In this document: positions 16,917-55,353 of the stretch, piece after piece
How the letters are laid out: each line of letters opens with the position of its first letter
Position numbering within the stretch: the first letter of the stretch is position 1
Assembly (NCBI GenBank): GCA_000092065.1
Contig: CP000594.1
DNA: 64,000 nt
Strand: one strand, 5' to 3'
Source: Ostreococcus lucimarinus
Taxonomy: Eukaryota
Notes under the pieces: generated by a model
The model's input: the letters and a program-made list of their open reading frames with translations, nothing else
Told to the model about the DNA's origin: nothing
Databases searched by the model: none
Made by a program: the position numbers and the translations under genes

Positions 16917-17143
16917 TCGTCGCGCGCGCGCGCGCGCGCGCGCGCACACATTTTTATATGGCGCAATCAGAGGTATTGTACGACCTCAGCGTTCATACAA
17001 CGGCGGTGCGCGTACCCATGTATGTATTCATTACCAGAGCCACGGCGACGGCCCGCGCGTCGACCGCCGGACCCACACAGCGCAATCAGAGGTATTGTAC
17101 GACCCCAGCGTTCATATAACGACGGTGCGCGTACCGATGTACG
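16917..17143. repeat. (CG)14 tract plus two copies of a 63-bp direct repeat (period about 118 bp)
   Basis: 16917-16950 is cgcgcg...cacaca. Copy 1 at 16961..17024 and copy 2 at 17079..17143 (gcgcaatcagaggtattgtacgacc[t/c]cagcgttcata[c/t]aacg[g/a]cggtgcgcgtacc[c/g]atgta) are about 90 percent identical. They lie between divergent start codons at 16775 and 17231. Confidence 0.8.
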
Positions 17144-17230: not shown

Positions 17231-19003
17231 ATGCCGCGCGCGTCGACGCGCGACGCCGACGCGCCGGGTTCGGCGCGCGCGGACGCTCGCGCGCGCGATG
17301 CCGCGTCGACGTCGCGCGAGACGGACGACGCCGACGCGCTGGCATCGGCGCGCGCGTCCGCGCTCCTCGACGACGCGACGCTCGAGCGCGCGATGGGGGC
17401 GACGGAGCATCGACGATTCGCGTTGAAGTGTCGCGCGCTGCGGTTCCGCGCGCGACGCGCGATCGAATCGAGACGCGACGGCGACGACGACGCGGCGCGC
17501 GAGCGACGCGCGGAGGACGCGGCGACGCTGGAGGCGACGGCGGCGTTTTGGCGCGAATTGTCGAGCGACGCGTCGAGCGGGACGAGGGCGCTGACGGCGC
17601 TGTTGAGACTCGCGCTGGACGGACGCGAGGGCGCGGGATCGGACGGGACGCGCGTGTCGAGCGCGAGAGCGCTGGCGAGGGCGCACCGGCCGCGAGACGT
17701 CGACGAGGACGAGGCGCCGACGACGGAGGCGCTGTTTCGGAGCGGCGACGCGCTGCGCGCGCGGGCGACGGCGCAGAATTTCGGAAGCGGCTTCGTCGCG
17801 GGGTTGGGGGGGGTGTTGACGCTGCCGATCGCGATCCCGGCGCAGCTCGCGGCGACGACGTTTACGTCGCTGCGACTCGCGCTGGCGCTGGCGATTTTAG
17901 CGGGGAAGGATCCGCTCGAACCGTCCGTCGCGGCGAAGGCGATCGCGGCGGCGCTCGGGAGCGCGGGAAGCGCGAGCGAAGAGTTGGACGACGTCGCGAG
18001 CGTGGGCGCGGGGGTGCGGGACGGGGTGCAATACGCCGCGATTCGAGCGAGCGGCACCGCGATGCAAAACGCTTCGTGGCGATTGACGCGCGCGGCGGCG
18101 ACAAAGTTGGCGCAGCGCGGGGCGCAGCGCGGCGCGTCGATGGCGATCACTCGCGCGGTGCCGATCATCGGAGGCGTCATCGGCGGCGCCGTGGACGGCG
18201 TCGTGACGCAAAACGCGGGGAACCGCGCGATGGCGGCGTTTTTCCCGCCGCGGCCGAAGGATTGTTCGACGATTGAGGAGAGCATTCGCAAGAGTAAAGA
18301 CGAGGCGGTGGCGAACGTGAAGAACGCGGCGGAAACCGCGGCGAAAACGTTAAACGGCGCGTTCGATAAAATATCCGTATCGCTGAAGACGAGTTTCGGA
18401 AAGCAAACGGACGACGCCGAGGGCGTCGCGACGCCGACGAGCGCGGGCTATCAAAGCCGCGAACTTTTAGCCGACGACTCGTGGGAACGCTTCGAGCGCG
18501 AGCGAGAATTGGAAAACATGCGCGCCGTCTTAGAAGACGACGTCGCGTTCGACGACGTGCACGCAGACGTGTTTTCGACGAAGTCGTCGTCCACGACGAC
18601 GACGACGACGACGACGAAATCTTCGCTCAAAGACGCCGACGCCGTCGAACGCGCCGCCAGGGACAAGAAAAAAGCCGACGCGTGGGCCGAATTCGACGCC
18701 CGATGGAAAGTGTTTCACGAAGACGTCGCCGACGCGACGACGAAAGTGATTCGTTACAAAGACATTCCGTGGCCGCCGAGCACGTCGCGCGCGCTCGCCG
18801 GCTGTCGCGGCAAAAACGCCGCGCCGGACGCCACCAAACGCGCGTATCGCAAACTCATCTTGCGTTTTCACCCCGATCGTTTCTCGAGGTTCACCCTTCA
18901 CGAGAGGGACAGGGATAAAATCATGGCCAAATGCGTGGCCGTGTCCGCCGCGATTCAGACGCAGTACGCCGAAGCGACTCGCGAGTCGCGAATAGCCGAA
19001 TAG
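17231..19003 (+). CDS. C-terminal J-domain (DnaJ) protein with a Gly/Ala-rich hydrophobic central region (590 aa)
   Basis: ATG at 17231. The C-terminus carries ..DATKRAYRKLILRFHPDRFSRF.. with the HPD tripeptide of J-domains. The central segment GFVAGLGGVLTLPIAIPAQLAATTFTSLRLALALAILAGKDP resembles bacterial EcsC-family proteins (tentative). The TAG stop lies inside a heptamer microsatellite. Confidence 0.6.
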   Translation: MPRASTRDADAPGSARADARARDAASTSRETDDADALASARASALLDDATLERAMGATEHRRFALKCRALRFRARRAIESRRDGDDDAARERRAEDAATLEATAAFWRELSSDASSGTRALTALLRLALDGREGAGSDGTRVSSARALARAHRPRDVDEDEAPTTEALFRSGDALRARATAQNFGSGFVAGLGGVLTLPIAIPAQLAATTFTSLRLALALAILAGKDPLEPSVAAKAIAAALGSAGSASEELDDVASVGAGVRDGVQYAAIRASGTAMQNASWRLTRAAATKLAQRGAQRGASMAITRAVPIIGGVIGGAVDGVVTQNAGNRAMAAFFPPRPKDCSTIEESIRKSKDEAVANVKNAAETAAKTLNGAFDKISVSLKTSFGKQTDDAEGVATPTSAGYQSRELLADDSWERFERERELENMRAVLEDDVAFDDVHADVFSTKSSSTTTTTTTTKSSLKDADAVERAARDKKKADAWAEFDARWKVFHEDVADATTKVIRYKDIPWPPSTSRALAGCRGKNAAPDATKRAYRKLILRFHPDRFSRFTLHERDRDKIMAKCVAVSAAIQTQYAEATRESRIAE

Positions 19004-19183
19004 CGAATAGCGAATAGCGAATAGCGAATAGCGAATAGCGAGTAGTCAACATTTGTGATTCAATAGTCGCAGTCACACGTCGACGCGAGTCGCGAGTCGC
19101 GAGTCGCGAGTACTGTAGCGAAAAGCGAGTAGTCATCTCATCATTCGTGATTCAATAGTCGCGGTCACACGTCGACGCGATCG
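18989..19183. repeat. Composite minisatellite: (GAATAGC)6-7, then a 50-bp unit, (GAGTCGC)4, and a second 50-bp unit
   Basis: Read directly. cgaatagc repeats run 18989-19035. The direct repeats gcgagtagtca..gtgattcaatagtcgc[a/g]gtcacacgtcgacgcga occur at 19038..19088 and 19125..19180. gagtcgc x4 lies at 19087-19114. Confidence 0.85.
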
Positions 19184-19645
19184 TCGCGTGGATGCGCGCG
19201 CGCGCGGACGCGAGCGACGCGAGCGACGCCGCGCGCGACCGCGACCGCGACCGCGCGAGCGCGGCGACGCGGGACGCGGAGATCGACGGGTTTCGACTCA
19301 TTCGCGCCCTCGCGTCGAATTCAACGCTCTCGACCTCGCGCGCGTCGGTCCTCGCGTCGCTCGCGGCCGCGTTCGGCGTGTCCGCGGTCGGCGCGGCGAC
19401 GGTCGTCGCGCGCGCGCGGTCGAGGACGAAGGCGGAGCGGGACCTGCCGCGAGGAACGCACTGGAGGGCGGCGGCGCACGCGGCGCGAGCGCTGGCGGCG
19501 GCGACGAGCGGAACGGCGGCGGCGTGCCTGGGAGCGTACGGCGCGTGTCACGCGCTCGGCGTGCGAAACGTTGAAGATTTGAGAAGAACTCTGCGACGAG
19601 GGACGACGAACGCGCTGGAGGCGGCGCCGGGGGAGTTTGGGAAGG

Positions 19646-50236: not shown

Positions 50237-52033
50237 TCACGCGCTGGAGGCGAAGAGTTGCGAAAACACGCGCTCTGCCCACGCCGGAATTTCCACGTCG
50301 TTTGCCTGCGTAAAGTTCACGAGCGGTTCCTGGACGTGATAACGAATCTTTCGACCCTTGCTCGCCTTGCGATCGACGTTTTTGCGACGTTTGATTTGTT
50401 TGGAGACGACGGAAGGTCCACCGGCGACGCCGGCGTCGTTGCCGCTCTCGAGGAACTCTTTGAGGAGTTGCTCGTAAAAGTCGACGTCGTCGTAAAGCTC
50501 CGACTCGCGAGCCTCACCTTCGTCCAAGCCATCGACGTTGACGGTTTCGGCTTTGTTCTCGTCGTCATCGTCGGCTTCTTCGCTCCGCACGGCGGCGCGT
50601 CGCTCACCGACGCGAATCGGCGCGCTGCGCTTCGGCGGCTGCGACTTTTCAATCAAACGCGCGGGCGCGCGCATGGTGGACGATACTTGCTGAGAGATGG
50701 ACTGGTTGAACGCCTTCAGACCGCCGCCCGCGCCTCCGCCGACCGCTTTACCCACGGAGACGGCGGATTTTCTGTACCATCGATCGCACGTCGAGTCGCG
50801 GTAGTTTGCGAACGCTCTGTATCCGGCGTCGTGCTTCGTCCACGCGTCGTCCAAGTCGTCGTCCACACCAATCACCGTAGCGTCCGCGCCGAGATTTGAG
50901 GTCGAGGCTATGTCGGCTATGTTCGCCATCAACGCAGTTTGAAGCGCAGAGAGCGTTCGCATGGTCTTCCGTGCGACTTTGGATAACGTCTCGAACGATT
51001 CGCGCGTCTCGGGCGACGCGCGTTTCAGTCCTCGGCACGCCAACGCCGTCGGTAACTTGGCGGCTCCGGTCATGACTTTCTGCAAACGAATTCTCGCGTG
51101 TAGCGCACGCTCCCAAACCGTTCGTTGCGCGCGAACCGCCTTACCTTTCGAGACGTGCTGCGCCTTGGTGTCGACGAGCTTCTTCGTTTGTTCCTCCTCC
51201 TCGCGAAACGCTTGAAGCTCTCGAGCGAGATCTGCGTCGCCTTCCGTGGCGGCGCCCAACAAATCTCTCGCCCGCGCGCCCTGCGCGTCGAACTCATCGC
51301 TCTGATCCTCGTCGTCCTCGTCCTCGTCGTCCTCGTCGCCGCCGTTCCTTCGTCCGGATCCCGTCGCCGCGGCGTCTTCGTCGTACCCTTCGTACGCGTC
51401 GTCGTCCTCATCCGCGTACGGATCCTCATCGCTCGCGTCCCCATCCTCCTCCGCACTTTCCTCGTCGTCGTCCCCGTCGTCCCCGTCGTCGTCGTCGCTC
51501 TCGTCCTCATCCGTCTCGCGCGCCGCCTCCGGTTCGTCCCGCGCGAAGTCCCGCCTCGACGCGCTTCGTCCCGCGTACTCCTCCCCCTCCATCTCGATCG
51601 GTCCTCGCATCCGCAACCGTCCGTCGTTCCCCCCCCCCGCGCGCACCGCGCGCTTTCCTCGCTCCCTCCCTCGCCTCGCCGCGCGTCCGCTCTCGCGATC
51701 GTCGCTCGAATCGTCGCCGAACCCGTCGCCCGCGTCGCGTCCCGCGTCGTCGTCCCACCCATCCTCGCTCCCGCTCTCGTCCTCGTCCAGCGCGCCCTCG
51801 ATCGCGCGCAGCGCCTCGAACGCGCGTTTGCGCGCCTCTACCCCGCCCTCTGGCTCGAGCGCGCGCGCGCGCGCGTCGTCGTCGTCGTCGTCGCGCGTCG
51901 TCGCGCCGCCGCCGGCGTCCCCACCGCGCGTCGTCGCGCCGCGCGCGATCGCGTCCAGCCGCGCCATCGCGTCCGCGCGCGAGGGCGTGGACGAGGGCGA
52001 CGCTTTCGCGCGTCTCCGCGGCGTCGCGCCCAT
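50237..52033 (-). CDS. AATF: AATF / Che-1 / Bfr2 family nucleolar protein (598 aa from the first ATG)
   Basis: The track ORF starts at GTG 52117. The first ATG is at 52031-52033. Long acidic D/E tracts, then an AATF-Che1 domain and a C-terminal TRAUB-like region (..LYDDVDFYEQLLKEFLESG.., ..IRYHVQEPLVNF.). Confidence 0.8.
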   Translation of the reverse strand: MGATPRRRAKASPSSTPSRADAMARLDAIARGATTRGGDAGGGATTRDDDDDDARARALEPEGGVEARKRAFEALRAIEGALDEDESGSEDGWDDDAGRDAGDGFGDDSSDDRESGRAARRGRERGKRAVRAGGGNDGRLRMRGPIEMEGEEYAGRSASRRDFARDEPEAARETDEDESDDDDGDDGDDDEESAEEDGDASDEDPYADEDDDAYEGYDEDAAATGSGRRNGGDEDDEDEDDEDQSDEFDAQGARARDLLGAATEGDADLARELQAFREEEEQTKKLVDTKAQHVSKGKAVRAQRTVWERALHARIRLQKVMTGAAKLPTALACRGLKRASPETRESFETLSKVARKTMRTLSALQTALMANIADIASTSNLGADATVIGVDDDLDDAWTKHDAGYRAFANYRDSTCDRWYRKSAVSVGKAVGGGAGGGLKAFNQSISQQVSSTMRAPARLIEKSQPPKRSAPIRVGERRAAVRSEEADDDDENKAETVNVDGLDEGEARESELYDDVDFYEQLLKEFLESGNDAGVAGGPSVVSKQIKRRKNVDRKASKGRKIRYHVQEPLVNFTQANDVEIPAWAERVFSQLFASSA

Positions 52034-52102
52034 GCCGGGCGTCGCGACGGCGCGTGACGCGCGATGGGGACGACGCCGACGGCGGACGCGCGTCGTGTAT
52101 AA

Positions 52103-52267
52103 AAACCCGTCTCGCACTGCGCACCATACGTGATATCAACAAAACCCGTCTCGCACTGCGCACCATACGACGCGAGCAGTGATATGAAAACCCGTCTCGC
52201 ACTGCGCACCATACGACGCGCGCAGTGATATCAACAAAACCCATCTCGCACTGCGCACCATACGACG
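52103..52267. repeat. Four tandem copies of the 29-bp motif aaaacccgtctcgcactgcgcaccatacg (period 38-49 bp)
   Basis: Copies begin near 52103, 52141, 52187 and 52236. The fourth copy has a single G-to-A change. The spacers are gtgatatcaac- or acgcgagcagtgatatg-like. The array lies between the divergent AATF start (52033) and the psaD start (52390). Confidence 0.85.
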
Positions 52268-52389
52268 CTACCGCGGCGTATCTCGCGCGCCGCGCGTATC
52301 GCGAGCGATCGCGCGCGGCCGACGCGGGCGCGGCACACGCGCGCGCCCGACGCCCGCGCCCCCGAACTTCGCGGACGCGACACACGACG

Positions 52390-53454
52390 ATGTTTGCCAT
52401 CTCCAGCTCCGCGCTGACGCCGCGCGCGACGGTCGCGAACGCGACGCGCACGCGACGATCGACGACCGCGCGACGATCGACGGCGATCCGCGCCGAGGCG
52501 GAGGGCGCGAAGGCGGCGCCGGCGGCGCCGAAGGCGTGGACGGCGCCGAAGTTGAACCCGAACACGCCGTCGCCGATTTTCGGTGGTTCCACCGGCGGTC
52601 TGTTGAGAAAGGCGCAGGTGCGCGAGCGACGAGGGAGCGGCGAACGCGCGCGACGATCGAGGCGCGGGCGGGATACGCGACGAACCTAGGGGTGATGATT
52701 GGGGCGATTGGGGCGCCGGCGAACGGAGGGGGGGGGGCGAACGATGCGCGAACGATGCGTCGAGTTTCTTTGCGGCGCGGGCGCGCGGGCGATCGGGGGG
52801 GGGTCGAACGCGCGCGACGACGCGCGCGCAATCGCGCGATCGGGCGCGGTGGGATGGGAACGTTTGGCGCGAGGCGCGCGGGGGGGATTTCAAAGACGAC
52901 GACGACGCGAGACTGACGGATGCGATGATGCGTTTGACGCGTGTAGGTTGAGGAGTTCTACGTGCTGACGTGGGAAGCGAAGAAGGAAGCCATCTTCGAG
53001 ATGCCGGTGCGTGGACGAGGCGAGCGCGAAGGCGCGCGCGCGCGAAGATATCGCGCGCTTTGAAACGACGCGACGACGAAGAGGCAAAGATTGGGGATGC
53101 GCGACGCGATCGTGGACGCGAAACAGCGACTGACGTGATGAAACGTGTATTTTGCATCCGCAGACCGGTGGTGCCGCGATCATGCGCAAGGGCCCGAACC
53201 TGTTGAAGCTCGCGCGCAAGGAGCAATGCCTCGCGCTTTTGAACAACTTCCGCGCGAAGATGAAGCTCGACGGCTGCATCTACCGCGTGTTCCCGTCCGG
53301 TGAGGTGCAATACTTGCACCCGAAGGATGGTGTGTACCCGGAGAAGGTGAACAAGGGTCGCGTCGGTGCCAACCAGAACATGCGATCGATCGGCAAGAAC
53401 ACCAACCCGGCGTCGATCAAGTTCCAAGGCAAGCTCGGCCCGTTCGAAGTTTAG
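52390..53454 (+). CDS. psaD: Photosystem I reaction-centre subunit II (PsaD) precursor, 192 aa. Exons 52390..52617, 52947..53006 and 53164..53454.
   Basis: Spliced protein reads ..[18 protein letters not shown]|[20 protein letters not shown]|[96 protein letters not shown], collinear with PsaD. Intron 1 (52618..52946) has donor GTGCGC, branch ACTGAC and acceptor TAG. Intron 2 (53007..53163) has donor GTGCGT, branch ACTGAC and acceptor CAG. All junctions are phase 0. N-terminal transit peptide. Confidence 0.9.
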
Positions 53455-53716: not shown

Positions 53717-53884
53717 ATCACGCCTCCTAGCCAAACTAATTGCAGTAACACACAGATTTTCACTGTTCATCCGCGCGCGCGCGTTCGCCCGCCCGCGCGC
53801 GATCGCCGGTCGCCGGTCGAGATCTTCGCCGCGATGACGCTGGCTGCGCGCCGTGGAATGACGCACATCGTATTTTAGAGCCAT

Positions 53885-53922
53885 TATATATGCAAGATAC
53901 GTTTTTAGGGTTTACCTATAAT
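53885..53922 (+). promoter_or_regulatory. AT-rich island with TATA-like elements (tatatat at 53885, tataat at 53917) upstream of CHL27
   Basis: About 60 bp of sub-40-percent GC in a roughly 68-percent GC genome, 205-240 bp upstream of the CHL27 ATG. Confidence 0.3.
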
Positions 53923-54126
53923 TTCGCGCGATCGGATCTTATCTGAGAAAATCTATACTGTTTGCGCATACGACGCGGACGCCCTCGGGACGACCCGCAT
54001 CGGATAAGCGCCGACGATCGTCACAGCACGCCTCGCGTTCGCCGCTCCGTCCGCTCGCGACGCCGTGACGAAAGCAGACGCACGTAACACTTTGCGCACG
54101 CACCACCGCACGCCTCGACGAGCGAC

Positions 54127-55353
54127 ATGCACGCGTTCACCATGCGCGCGAGCGCGATGAAGACGCCGGTGGCGAAGATGACGTCGAGATCGCGATCGGC
54201 GACGCGACGCCAAGGCGCCGTGGTCGTCCGCGCGGCCGCGGCGACGGACGCGGAGACTGGGATCAAGAAGATGCGCGAGGGTATCAAGGAGGCGGCGAAC
54301 GAAAACTTGTTGACGCCGCGATTTTACACGACGGATTTCGACGAGATGGAGCGCCTGTTCAGCACGGAGATCAACCCGAACTTGGACGAGACGGAGATTA
54401 ACGCCATCTTGAACGAGTTCCGCGAGGATTTCAACCAGAAGCACTTCGTGCGCAACGATGAGTTCAAGGCGGCGGCGGATCAGATCAAGGGTGAGCCGCG
54501 CAGAATTTTCATCGAGTTTTTGGAGCGCTCGTGCACGGCGGAGTTTAGCGGGTTTTTGTTGTACAAGGAACTCGGCCGCAGATTGAAGAAGACGGCCCCG
54601 GCGGTGGCGGAGATCTTCACGTTGATGTCCCGCGACGAGGCGCGTCACGCTGGGTTCTTGAACAAGGCGATGAGCGATTTCAACTTGGCGCTCGACCTCG
54701 GGTTTTTGACCAAGAACCGCCAATACACGTTTTTCCAGCCGAAGTTCATCATGTACGCCACGTACTTGAGCGAAAAGATTGGCTACTGGCGTTACATCTC
54801 CATCTACCGCCACTTGCAAGCGAATCCGGACGAGCAATTGTACCCGTTGTTCAAGTACTTTGAGAACTGGTGCCAAGACGAAAACCGTCACGGCGACTTC
54901 TTCTCGGCGATTTTGAAGGCGCGCCCGGAGTTGATCAACACCACCGAAGCGAAGCTCTGGTCTCGATTCTTCTGCTTGTCCGTGTACGTCACCATGTACT
55001 TGAACGATCACGGCCGCAGTGAGTTCTACGAATCGCTCGGTTTGGACACGACGCAATTCAACATGCACGTCATTCACCAAACCAACAAGACGACGGCGAC
55101 GATTTTCCCGCAAGTCATCGACACCTACAACCCGGAGTTCAAGGCGCGTCTCGACAAGCTCGTCGGCGTGAACACCCAACTCCAAGCCATCGGTAAGGGT
55201 GAAGGTTCGGAAATCATGAAGAACTTGCAAAAGGCGCCGCTCATCGCCACCTTCGCGGGTGAGTTGATCGGTTTGTTGGCCATGGCTCCGGTCGACGCCG
55301 GTTCCATCGACTTGACCGGCGTTCCGGAATCCGACCCGTCCTTCATGTACTAA
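54127..55353 (+). CDS. CHL27: Mg-protoporphyrin IX monomethyl ester (oxidative) cyclase, di-iron type (CHL27 / CRD1 / AcsF)
   Basis: ATG at 54127 with a plastid transit peptide. Near-complete match to the cyclase family: ExxH di-iron motifs ([18 protein letters not shown]), [13 protein letters not shown], and C-terminal ..[11 protein letters not shown]. Confidence 0.93.

Follow-up and report, generated by a model that had tools for sequence, protein, structure and literature searches.

The spacer between the AATF/Che-1 homologue and psaD of Ostreococcus lucimarinus carries, in its distal half, a tandem array that is very probably a young, species-specific and hypervariable minisatellite (VNTR). 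The array lies in a 64,000-nucleotide stretch of DNA (the window), and was followed in natural alleles and in the orthologous spacers of other Ostreococcus lineages. In the original prediction the motifs were taken either for multimerised transcription-factor sites or for a minisatellite of recent expansion. The minisatellite is borne out, given that a whole unit is repeated, in one to four copies and at a single locus. The transcription-factor sites find no support in conservation among orthologues, in constraint on the repeated core or in recurrence within the window. Judged from sequence, the array shows no sign of being a conserved regulatory site and its effect is most likely neutral, or at most a weak change of promoter strength via spacing or composition.

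Position and structure of the array

Both divergent neighbours had been named correctly, as Pfam matches bear out: the AATF reading frame matches AATF-Che1 (2.6e-24) and TRAUB (1.3e-21), and the psaD product matches PsaD (4.3e-65) and is 100% identical to the PsaD of O. lucimarinus CCE9901. Exact look-up returned no record for the AATF protein of the window, and its homologues were found through a protein search. From start codon to start codon the spacer measures 356 bp (52034–52389) and not the 357 bp given originally, and 68 nt separate the AATF start codon from the array. The two psaD introns (52618–52946, 329 nt; 53007–53163, 157 nt) are confirmed by cDNA, and their positions are the same in O. 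tauri and the other Ostreococcus lineages examined. Downstream of psaD and on the same strand, the gene at 54127–55353 has a 408-aa product, in which a Rubrerythrin domain is present at all orthologous loci. The AT-rich island upstream of this gene (53860–53970) holds a telomere-like TTTAGGGTTTA at 53904–53914 and a GATAAG word, and has no motif in common with the psaD array. A similarity between the array and this next promoter downstream, TGCGCA-TACGACGCG at approximately 53960, was rejected as consisting mostly of a very common genome word.

The 29-mer AAAACCCGTCTCGCACTGCGCACCATACG occurs in four head-to-tail copies on the plus strand at 52102–52264 (Table 1), and was matched 0 times in 100 dinucleotide-preserving shuffles of the window. 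Most of the original description holds, namely a 29-bp motif repeated four times head-to-tail (three exact copies and one variant), a single G-to-A change in the fourth copy and spacers of 10–20 bp. The array had been placed at 52103–52267; its existence stands, and those ends are off by one to three bases. Core start-to-start spacing is 39, 46 and 49 nt, and the three junctions are length variants of a single sequence. The spacer sequences show a relationship among themselves as well as to the right flank; the repeated unit is therefore the whole 39–49 bp segment, and the array a minisatellite with indels. Tandem Repeats Finder (TRF) reports a period of 46 at 52130–52268, with 2.9 copies, 89% matches, 6% indels and a score of 236, the highest of any tandem repeat in the window; the runner-up, a CG-rich simple sequence, scores 111. 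The repeated segment of approximately 46 bp can be written as the 29-nt core plus ACGCGCGCGGYGWTATC-like sequence, and the right flank is probably where the segment of the first duplication ended.

Table 1 Features of the AATF–psaD region (positions in the window).
Feature	Position	Strand	Remark
AATF/Che-1 homologue	50237–52033	−	single exon, 598 aa; ATG at 52033
Repeat core copy 1	52102–52130	+	exact 29-mer
Junction 1, tgatatcaac	52131–52140	+	10 nt, shortened form of the other junctions
Repeat core copy 2	52141–52169	+	exact 29-mer
Junction 2, acgcgagcagtgatatg	52170–52186	+	17 nt
Repeat core copy 3	52187–52215	+	exact 29-mer
Junction 3, acgcgcgcagtgatatcaac	52216–52235	+	20 nt; with its core, the full 49-bp unit
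Repeat core copy 4	52236–52264	+	G-to-A at 52243 (motif position 8)
Right flank, acgctaccgcggcgtatc	52265–52282	+	resembles junction sequence
GC-rich psaD-proximal block	52283–52362	+	sole conserved part of the spacer among Ostreococcus species
psaD cDNA 5′ ends	52344–52348	+	two independent spliced contigs, 46 and 42 nt before the ATG
psaD gene	52390–53454	+	exons 52390–52617, 52947–53006, 53164–53454; 192-aa product

In base composition the array is the sole AT-richer island of the spacer, with a G+C content of 53–57% versus 77–84% in the flanks, so that each unit amounts to approximately 45 bp of 54%-GC DNA between flanks of approximately 80% GC. All other stretches of the spacer are very GC-rich, and the array may therefore be the nucleosome-free part of the promoter. 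Low-GC islands were also considered as a general proxy for intergenic spacers and rejected, given that coding regions dip below the threshold as well.

The psaD transcript could be positioned with two Logan contigs (L018 and L019), which encode a PsaD 99% identical to that of the window and are spliced exactly at the modelled introns; they are therefore cDNA. Bases 1–19 of L018 are the Nextera mosaic-end adapter AGATGTGTATAAGAGACAG, which is not algal and was removed. The 42–46 nt thus obtained are a minimum 5′ UTR and give a minimum estimate of the transcription start. Relative to these 5′ ends the array lies approximately 80–240 nt upstream, outside the psaD mRNA, and its original placement in a promoter region agrees with 5′ ends some 80 nt downstream of it. 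The same data bear on whether the repeat encodes or belongs to an RNA, be it a small non-coding RNA or a 5′ UTR of psaD or AATF that is structured or contains a uORF. Some units contain an 8-nt inverted repeat (CACTGCGC ... GCGCAGTG), an ATG in junction 2 opens a 14-codon ORF as read from the sequence, and the AATF transcription start could lie in or beyond the array. However, both psaD cDNA contigs begin downstream of the array, the inverted repeat is disrupted in several alleles, and the folding energy is no better than that of shuffles on either strand (z = −0.72 and −0.76). A scan of 51800–52700 against Rfam at E ≤ 10 gave four chance-level matches, the best with an E value of 2.2 and none of them in the array. 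The family match, stable structure and transcription that mark a non-coding RNA gene were thus not found for the array, and such an RNA role of the repeat is highly unlikely.

Genomic distribution and natural alleles

An exact scan of 241 million metagenome records with the core 21-mer TCTCGCACTGCGCACCATACG returned five contigs from near-identical strains, and all five are the AATF–psaD spacer. The same samples cover the genome at the array locus, so other copies should have surfaced if they existed. The 21-mer was found neither in IMG/VR viral contigs nor in 185,579 prokaryote genomes. Elsewhere in the 64-kb window, core words of at least 9 nt are not above expectation, 15-nt sub-blocks of the core are as frequent as in shuffles, and a degenerate search, which covered these 64 kb of the genome, gave a best other match to the 29-mer with 10 mismatches. 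The search for the 29-mer that had been proposed as a check, carried out here on the window and, with the core 21-mer, on the metagenomes, indicates that it is not dispersed, with all matches outside the window at the same locus; where thousands of dispersed copies would have spoken against the original prediction, the exact metagenome scan finds one locus.

Further alleles were collected through a 90%-identity cluster of AATF proteins (202 members), giving 13 alleles including the window and 34 core copies altogether. Copy counts rest on the nine fully spanned alleles, window included: one copy in L011, two in L012, three in L001, L003, L005, L014 and L016, and four in the window and L015. 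All nine are distinct in structure, between near-identical flanks. One right-flank haplotype, GCATTCG, alone spans one to four copies, and the array therefore changes faster than point substitutions build up. The G-to-A change of copy 4 in the window also occurs in the last copy of an environmental allele (L005). The array thus shows what characterizes a minisatellite or VNTR: head-to-tail copies of a unit of 10–100 bp, a single, non-dispersed locus, and a copy number that differs within one species, most of the alleles being metagenome assemblies.

At least four classes of junction can be told apart among the alleles: acgcgNgcNgtgatatc, both with and without aac; (c)ggtgatatcaac; tcgtgtatg or acgcgcgtcgtgtatg, in which the left flank is re-used; and acgctaccggtgatatcaac, in which the right flank is re-used. 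GTGATAT is present in most junctions. The several breakpoint classes point to several independent events. Alleles L001 and L004 have the right flank acgcgcgcgcggcgtatc adjoining junctions that read acgcgcgcggtgatatc, which indicates that the junction is a diverged copy of the flank and that the original event duplicated approximately 46 bp. Variation extends to the left edge of the array, where the window allele alone reads TATAAAAA at 52098–52105, owing to an A at 52101. All environmental alleles that cover this position (10 of 10) have a G there (GTGTATGAAAA), and the TATA-like word is therefore not conserved.

Several metagenome contigs stop within the array, and a run of N interrupts one scaffold at this point, as is expected for a variable repeat. 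Most alleles are short-read metagenome assemblies, in which repeats can be misjoined when alleles coexist; that distinct junctions exist is for this reason better assured than the copy number of any one allele. The junctions themselves are shorter than the assembler k-mers (55–141 nt, judged from contig names that give k127, k141 and SPAdes), and hence should not be inventions of the assembler.

Two incomplete contigs have an AT-rich insertion of approximately 95 nt, TCCCGGGTGTGCGTGGCTAAACCCCATTGGTTTCGTTTCTTTAATTTACTTCGCCGTGTTCTCTTCGTCGTATTTTGTTATATTTTCTACGA, inside the array: on the reverse strand of L017, in the last ~150 nt of the oriented contig, and in the first ~35 nt of L002. Such an insertion is what might be seen if the array were a fragment or internal repeat of a dispersed element (satellite, MITE or viral DNA) that had landed in the spacer. 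However, no copy of the insertion turned up in the window, in viral contigs or in spacers from other species, there was no sign of terminal inverted repeats, and the 21-mer surfaced at no second metagenome locus although the samples cover the genome, nor in viral contigs. A 15-mer gave 44 matches in viral contigs, all single and none in arrays, a number that a rough estimate puts at chance level. Neither the many copies nor the terminal repeats and target-site duplications of a dispersed repeat or transposable element were found, and such an origin is barely credible. Considered as an ancestral AT-rich island, the insertion was rejected for want of significant similarity to the spacers of other species. 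The right edge of the insertion borders on the GTGATATCAAC of the junctions, and the insertion-bearing form might therefore be the older structure.

Comparing the conservation of core and spacers had been suggested as a way to separate selected binding sites from a minisatellite. Mean pairwise difference is 0.022 in the cores, 0.027 in the right flank, 0.013 in the left flank and 0.004 in psaD exon 1, and 4 of the 29 core positions are variable. The lower polymorphism than in neighbouring non-coding DNA that would be expected of binding sites is therefore not seen in the cores, and the comparison does not favour constraint. Spacers look more variable because they are the breakpoints of separate duplication and deletion events, and not because the core is constrained. 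The whole core is kept in every allele across very different junctions, with at least one intact core throughout; this retention, together with the recurrent GTGATAT, is also what a functional need for the core would predict.

We suggest that the minisatellite arose through tandem duplication and keeps changing through replication slippage or unequal recombination between identical stretches of 29–34 nt. The near-identity of the cores would then reflect youth and repeated duplication and deletion, and not purifying selection on a binding site.

Orthologous spacers and a possible binding site

O. tauri (L010) and three environmental lineages (L006, L007/L008 and L009) have the same divergent order of AATF and psaD, and in the environmental lineages the AATF proteins are 68–77% identical to that of the window. 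Aligned to the spacers of L006, L007, L009 and L010, the repeated unit gives Smith-Waterman scores of 16–18, with shuffle means of 16.6–19.5. Scores at or below the mean of dinucleotide shuffles indicate that the unit has no detectable homology in these four lineages. Absence of the motif from orthologous promoters, which had been named in advance as evidence against binding sites, is thus what is found in the four other Ostreococcus lineages. Given the high divergence between species (57–78% AATF protein identity), the loss of a short binding site from the alignment is weak evidence against function.

The psaD-proximal block at 52283–52362, which includes CGTATCGCGAGCGATCGCGCGC and GGCACACGCGCGCGC, behaves differently. 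It scores 64 against the O. tauri spacer (shuffles 36.6 ± 5.7) and 43 against L007 (shuffles 27 ± 4), with 0 of 200 shuffles as high in either case, and is also conserved with the L009 lineage. As the proximal block scores above shuffles and the unit does not, the phylogenetic footprint of the spacer adjoins the array and does not lie inside it. The psaD cDNA 5′ ends fall within the block, which makes it the better candidate for the psaD core promoter. Added repeat units would shift the AATF side away from this block.

It is against this background that the 29-mer may be considered as a putative factor-binding site, multimerised and maintained by selection, with copy number setting the output. 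It would be an upstream activating element for day-expressed psaD, or for both divergent genes. The distance of 80–240 nt to the psaD 5′ end is the usual place of upstream elements, no other AT-richer island exists in the spacer, which is otherwise 77–84% GC, every allele has at least one intact core despite differing junctions, and O. tauri has independently duplicated 80 nt in the same spacer. Regulated transcription also exists, given that expression of O. tauri PSAD peaks by day and is at its minimum at night (PMC5508029). However, the motif is undetectable in the orthologous spacers of four lineages although the adjacent block is conserved, it recurs neither in the 64-kb window (degenerate search) nor at another metagenome locus (exact 21-mer), the polymorphism of the cores equals that of the unique flanks, and an allele with one copy (L011) exists. 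To our knowledge, the array contains no known plant or algal motif. A selected multimer of binding sites is, on these comparisons, unlikely, and a young minisatellite remains the preferred explanation.

The O. tauri repeat in the same spacer is a direct duplication of 80 nt (L010 3672–3751 and 3785–3864), 95% identical and spaced by 113 nt. By eye it shares ATACGTGAT and CACTGCG with the O. lucimarinus unit, but alignment scores do not exceed the shuffle mean and we rejected it as a homologue. In the next divergent spacer, ahead of a RuvX-domain gene, O. tauri has a second repeat (L010 6982–7161, 2 × 82 nt), so that two duplications were counted within 9.4 kb. The window itself has two further complex local duplications, at 16961–17141 and 19046–19180. 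Duplications of this local kind thus appear to be common in the spacers of Ostreococcus, and any one of them carries correspondingly less weight.

The first of these two window duplications is a complex segment of 62 nt (16961–17022 and 17080–17141), 94% identical and spaced by 119 nt. It sits in an AT-richer island, apparently between divergent genes, and resembles a local promoter duplication. The second is a segment of 43 nt (19046–19088 and 19138–19180), 93% identical, accompanied by the microsatellite (AGCGAAT)x10 at 18973–19045 and by (CGCGAGT)x4 at 19084–19111. These repeats, at 18973–19180, lie between a gene that ends near 19003 and one that starts near 19192.

Known promoter repeats and significance

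The closest known parallels of the array are human promoter VNTRs and the variable tandem repeats of yeast promoters. Human promoter VNTRs, such as the 30-bp repeat upstream of MAOA and the insulin-gene minisatellite, have measured effects on transcription. The psaD array resembles them in being a polymorphic, single-locus repeat upstream of one gene, with a unit of tens of bases and one to five copies, but in the array an effect on transcription is only a possibility. The 72-bp repeats of SV40 and the duplicated CaMV 35S enhancers contain defined factor-binding sites and are needed for activity. What they have in common with the array is a complex segment that is directly repeated ahead of a core promoter. 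The array differs from them in that it has no identified binding site, is not conserved between species and exists in a one-copy allele.

The other close parallel is provided by the unstable tandem repeats of yeast promoters (Vinces et al. 2009, as summarised in PMC3887541). As far as that summary describes them, the array is alike in lying within approximately 250 bp of the transcription start, in varying naturally in copy number and in forming an AT-richer part of the promoter, and like them it is a variable tandem repeat inside a promoter. In contrast to the short AT-rich tracts of yeast, as given in the same summary, its unit is long (39–49 bp) and complex, and any link of its copy number to expression would be putative. 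The host differs as well, being a marine green picoalga with very compact, GC-rich spacers. Within the genus, phylogenetic footprints in intergenic DNA have been addressed by Piganeau et al. 2009 (cited in PMC2850359). To the extent that the citing paper presents it, that study deals with the same genus and with the same question, namely which portions of short intergenic DNA are regulatory. In this spacer the footprint is the GC-rich block at 52283–52362 and not the array. Our literature search found no description of the array, or of promoter minisatellites in Ostreococcus.

The array is thus an ordinary and common kind of sequence, a polymorphic promoter minisatellite. Given that all nine spanned alleles are distinct, it could serve as a very variable marker at a single locus to type O. 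lucimarinus genotypes in cultures and metagenomes. Metagenome contigs break at the array, which is relevant for assembling the O. lucimarinus genome. For regulatory work, the conserved block at 52283–52362 is the better candidate.

The array possibly affects expression. In its strongest form, this would make it a 'tuning knob', in which gain and loss of the ~46-bp unit alter the output of psaD, and perhaps of AATF, among co-occurring genotypes, a role that appears quite improbable. If it were true, photosystem I stoichiometry could adapt fast to light regimes, and the duplication in the same spacer of O. tauri would be a parallel response and not a coincidence. If copy number affects psaD transcription, the array would offer an easily studied example, in an abundant marine alga, of expression variation driven by a repeat, and would help in designing strong Ostreococcus promoters.
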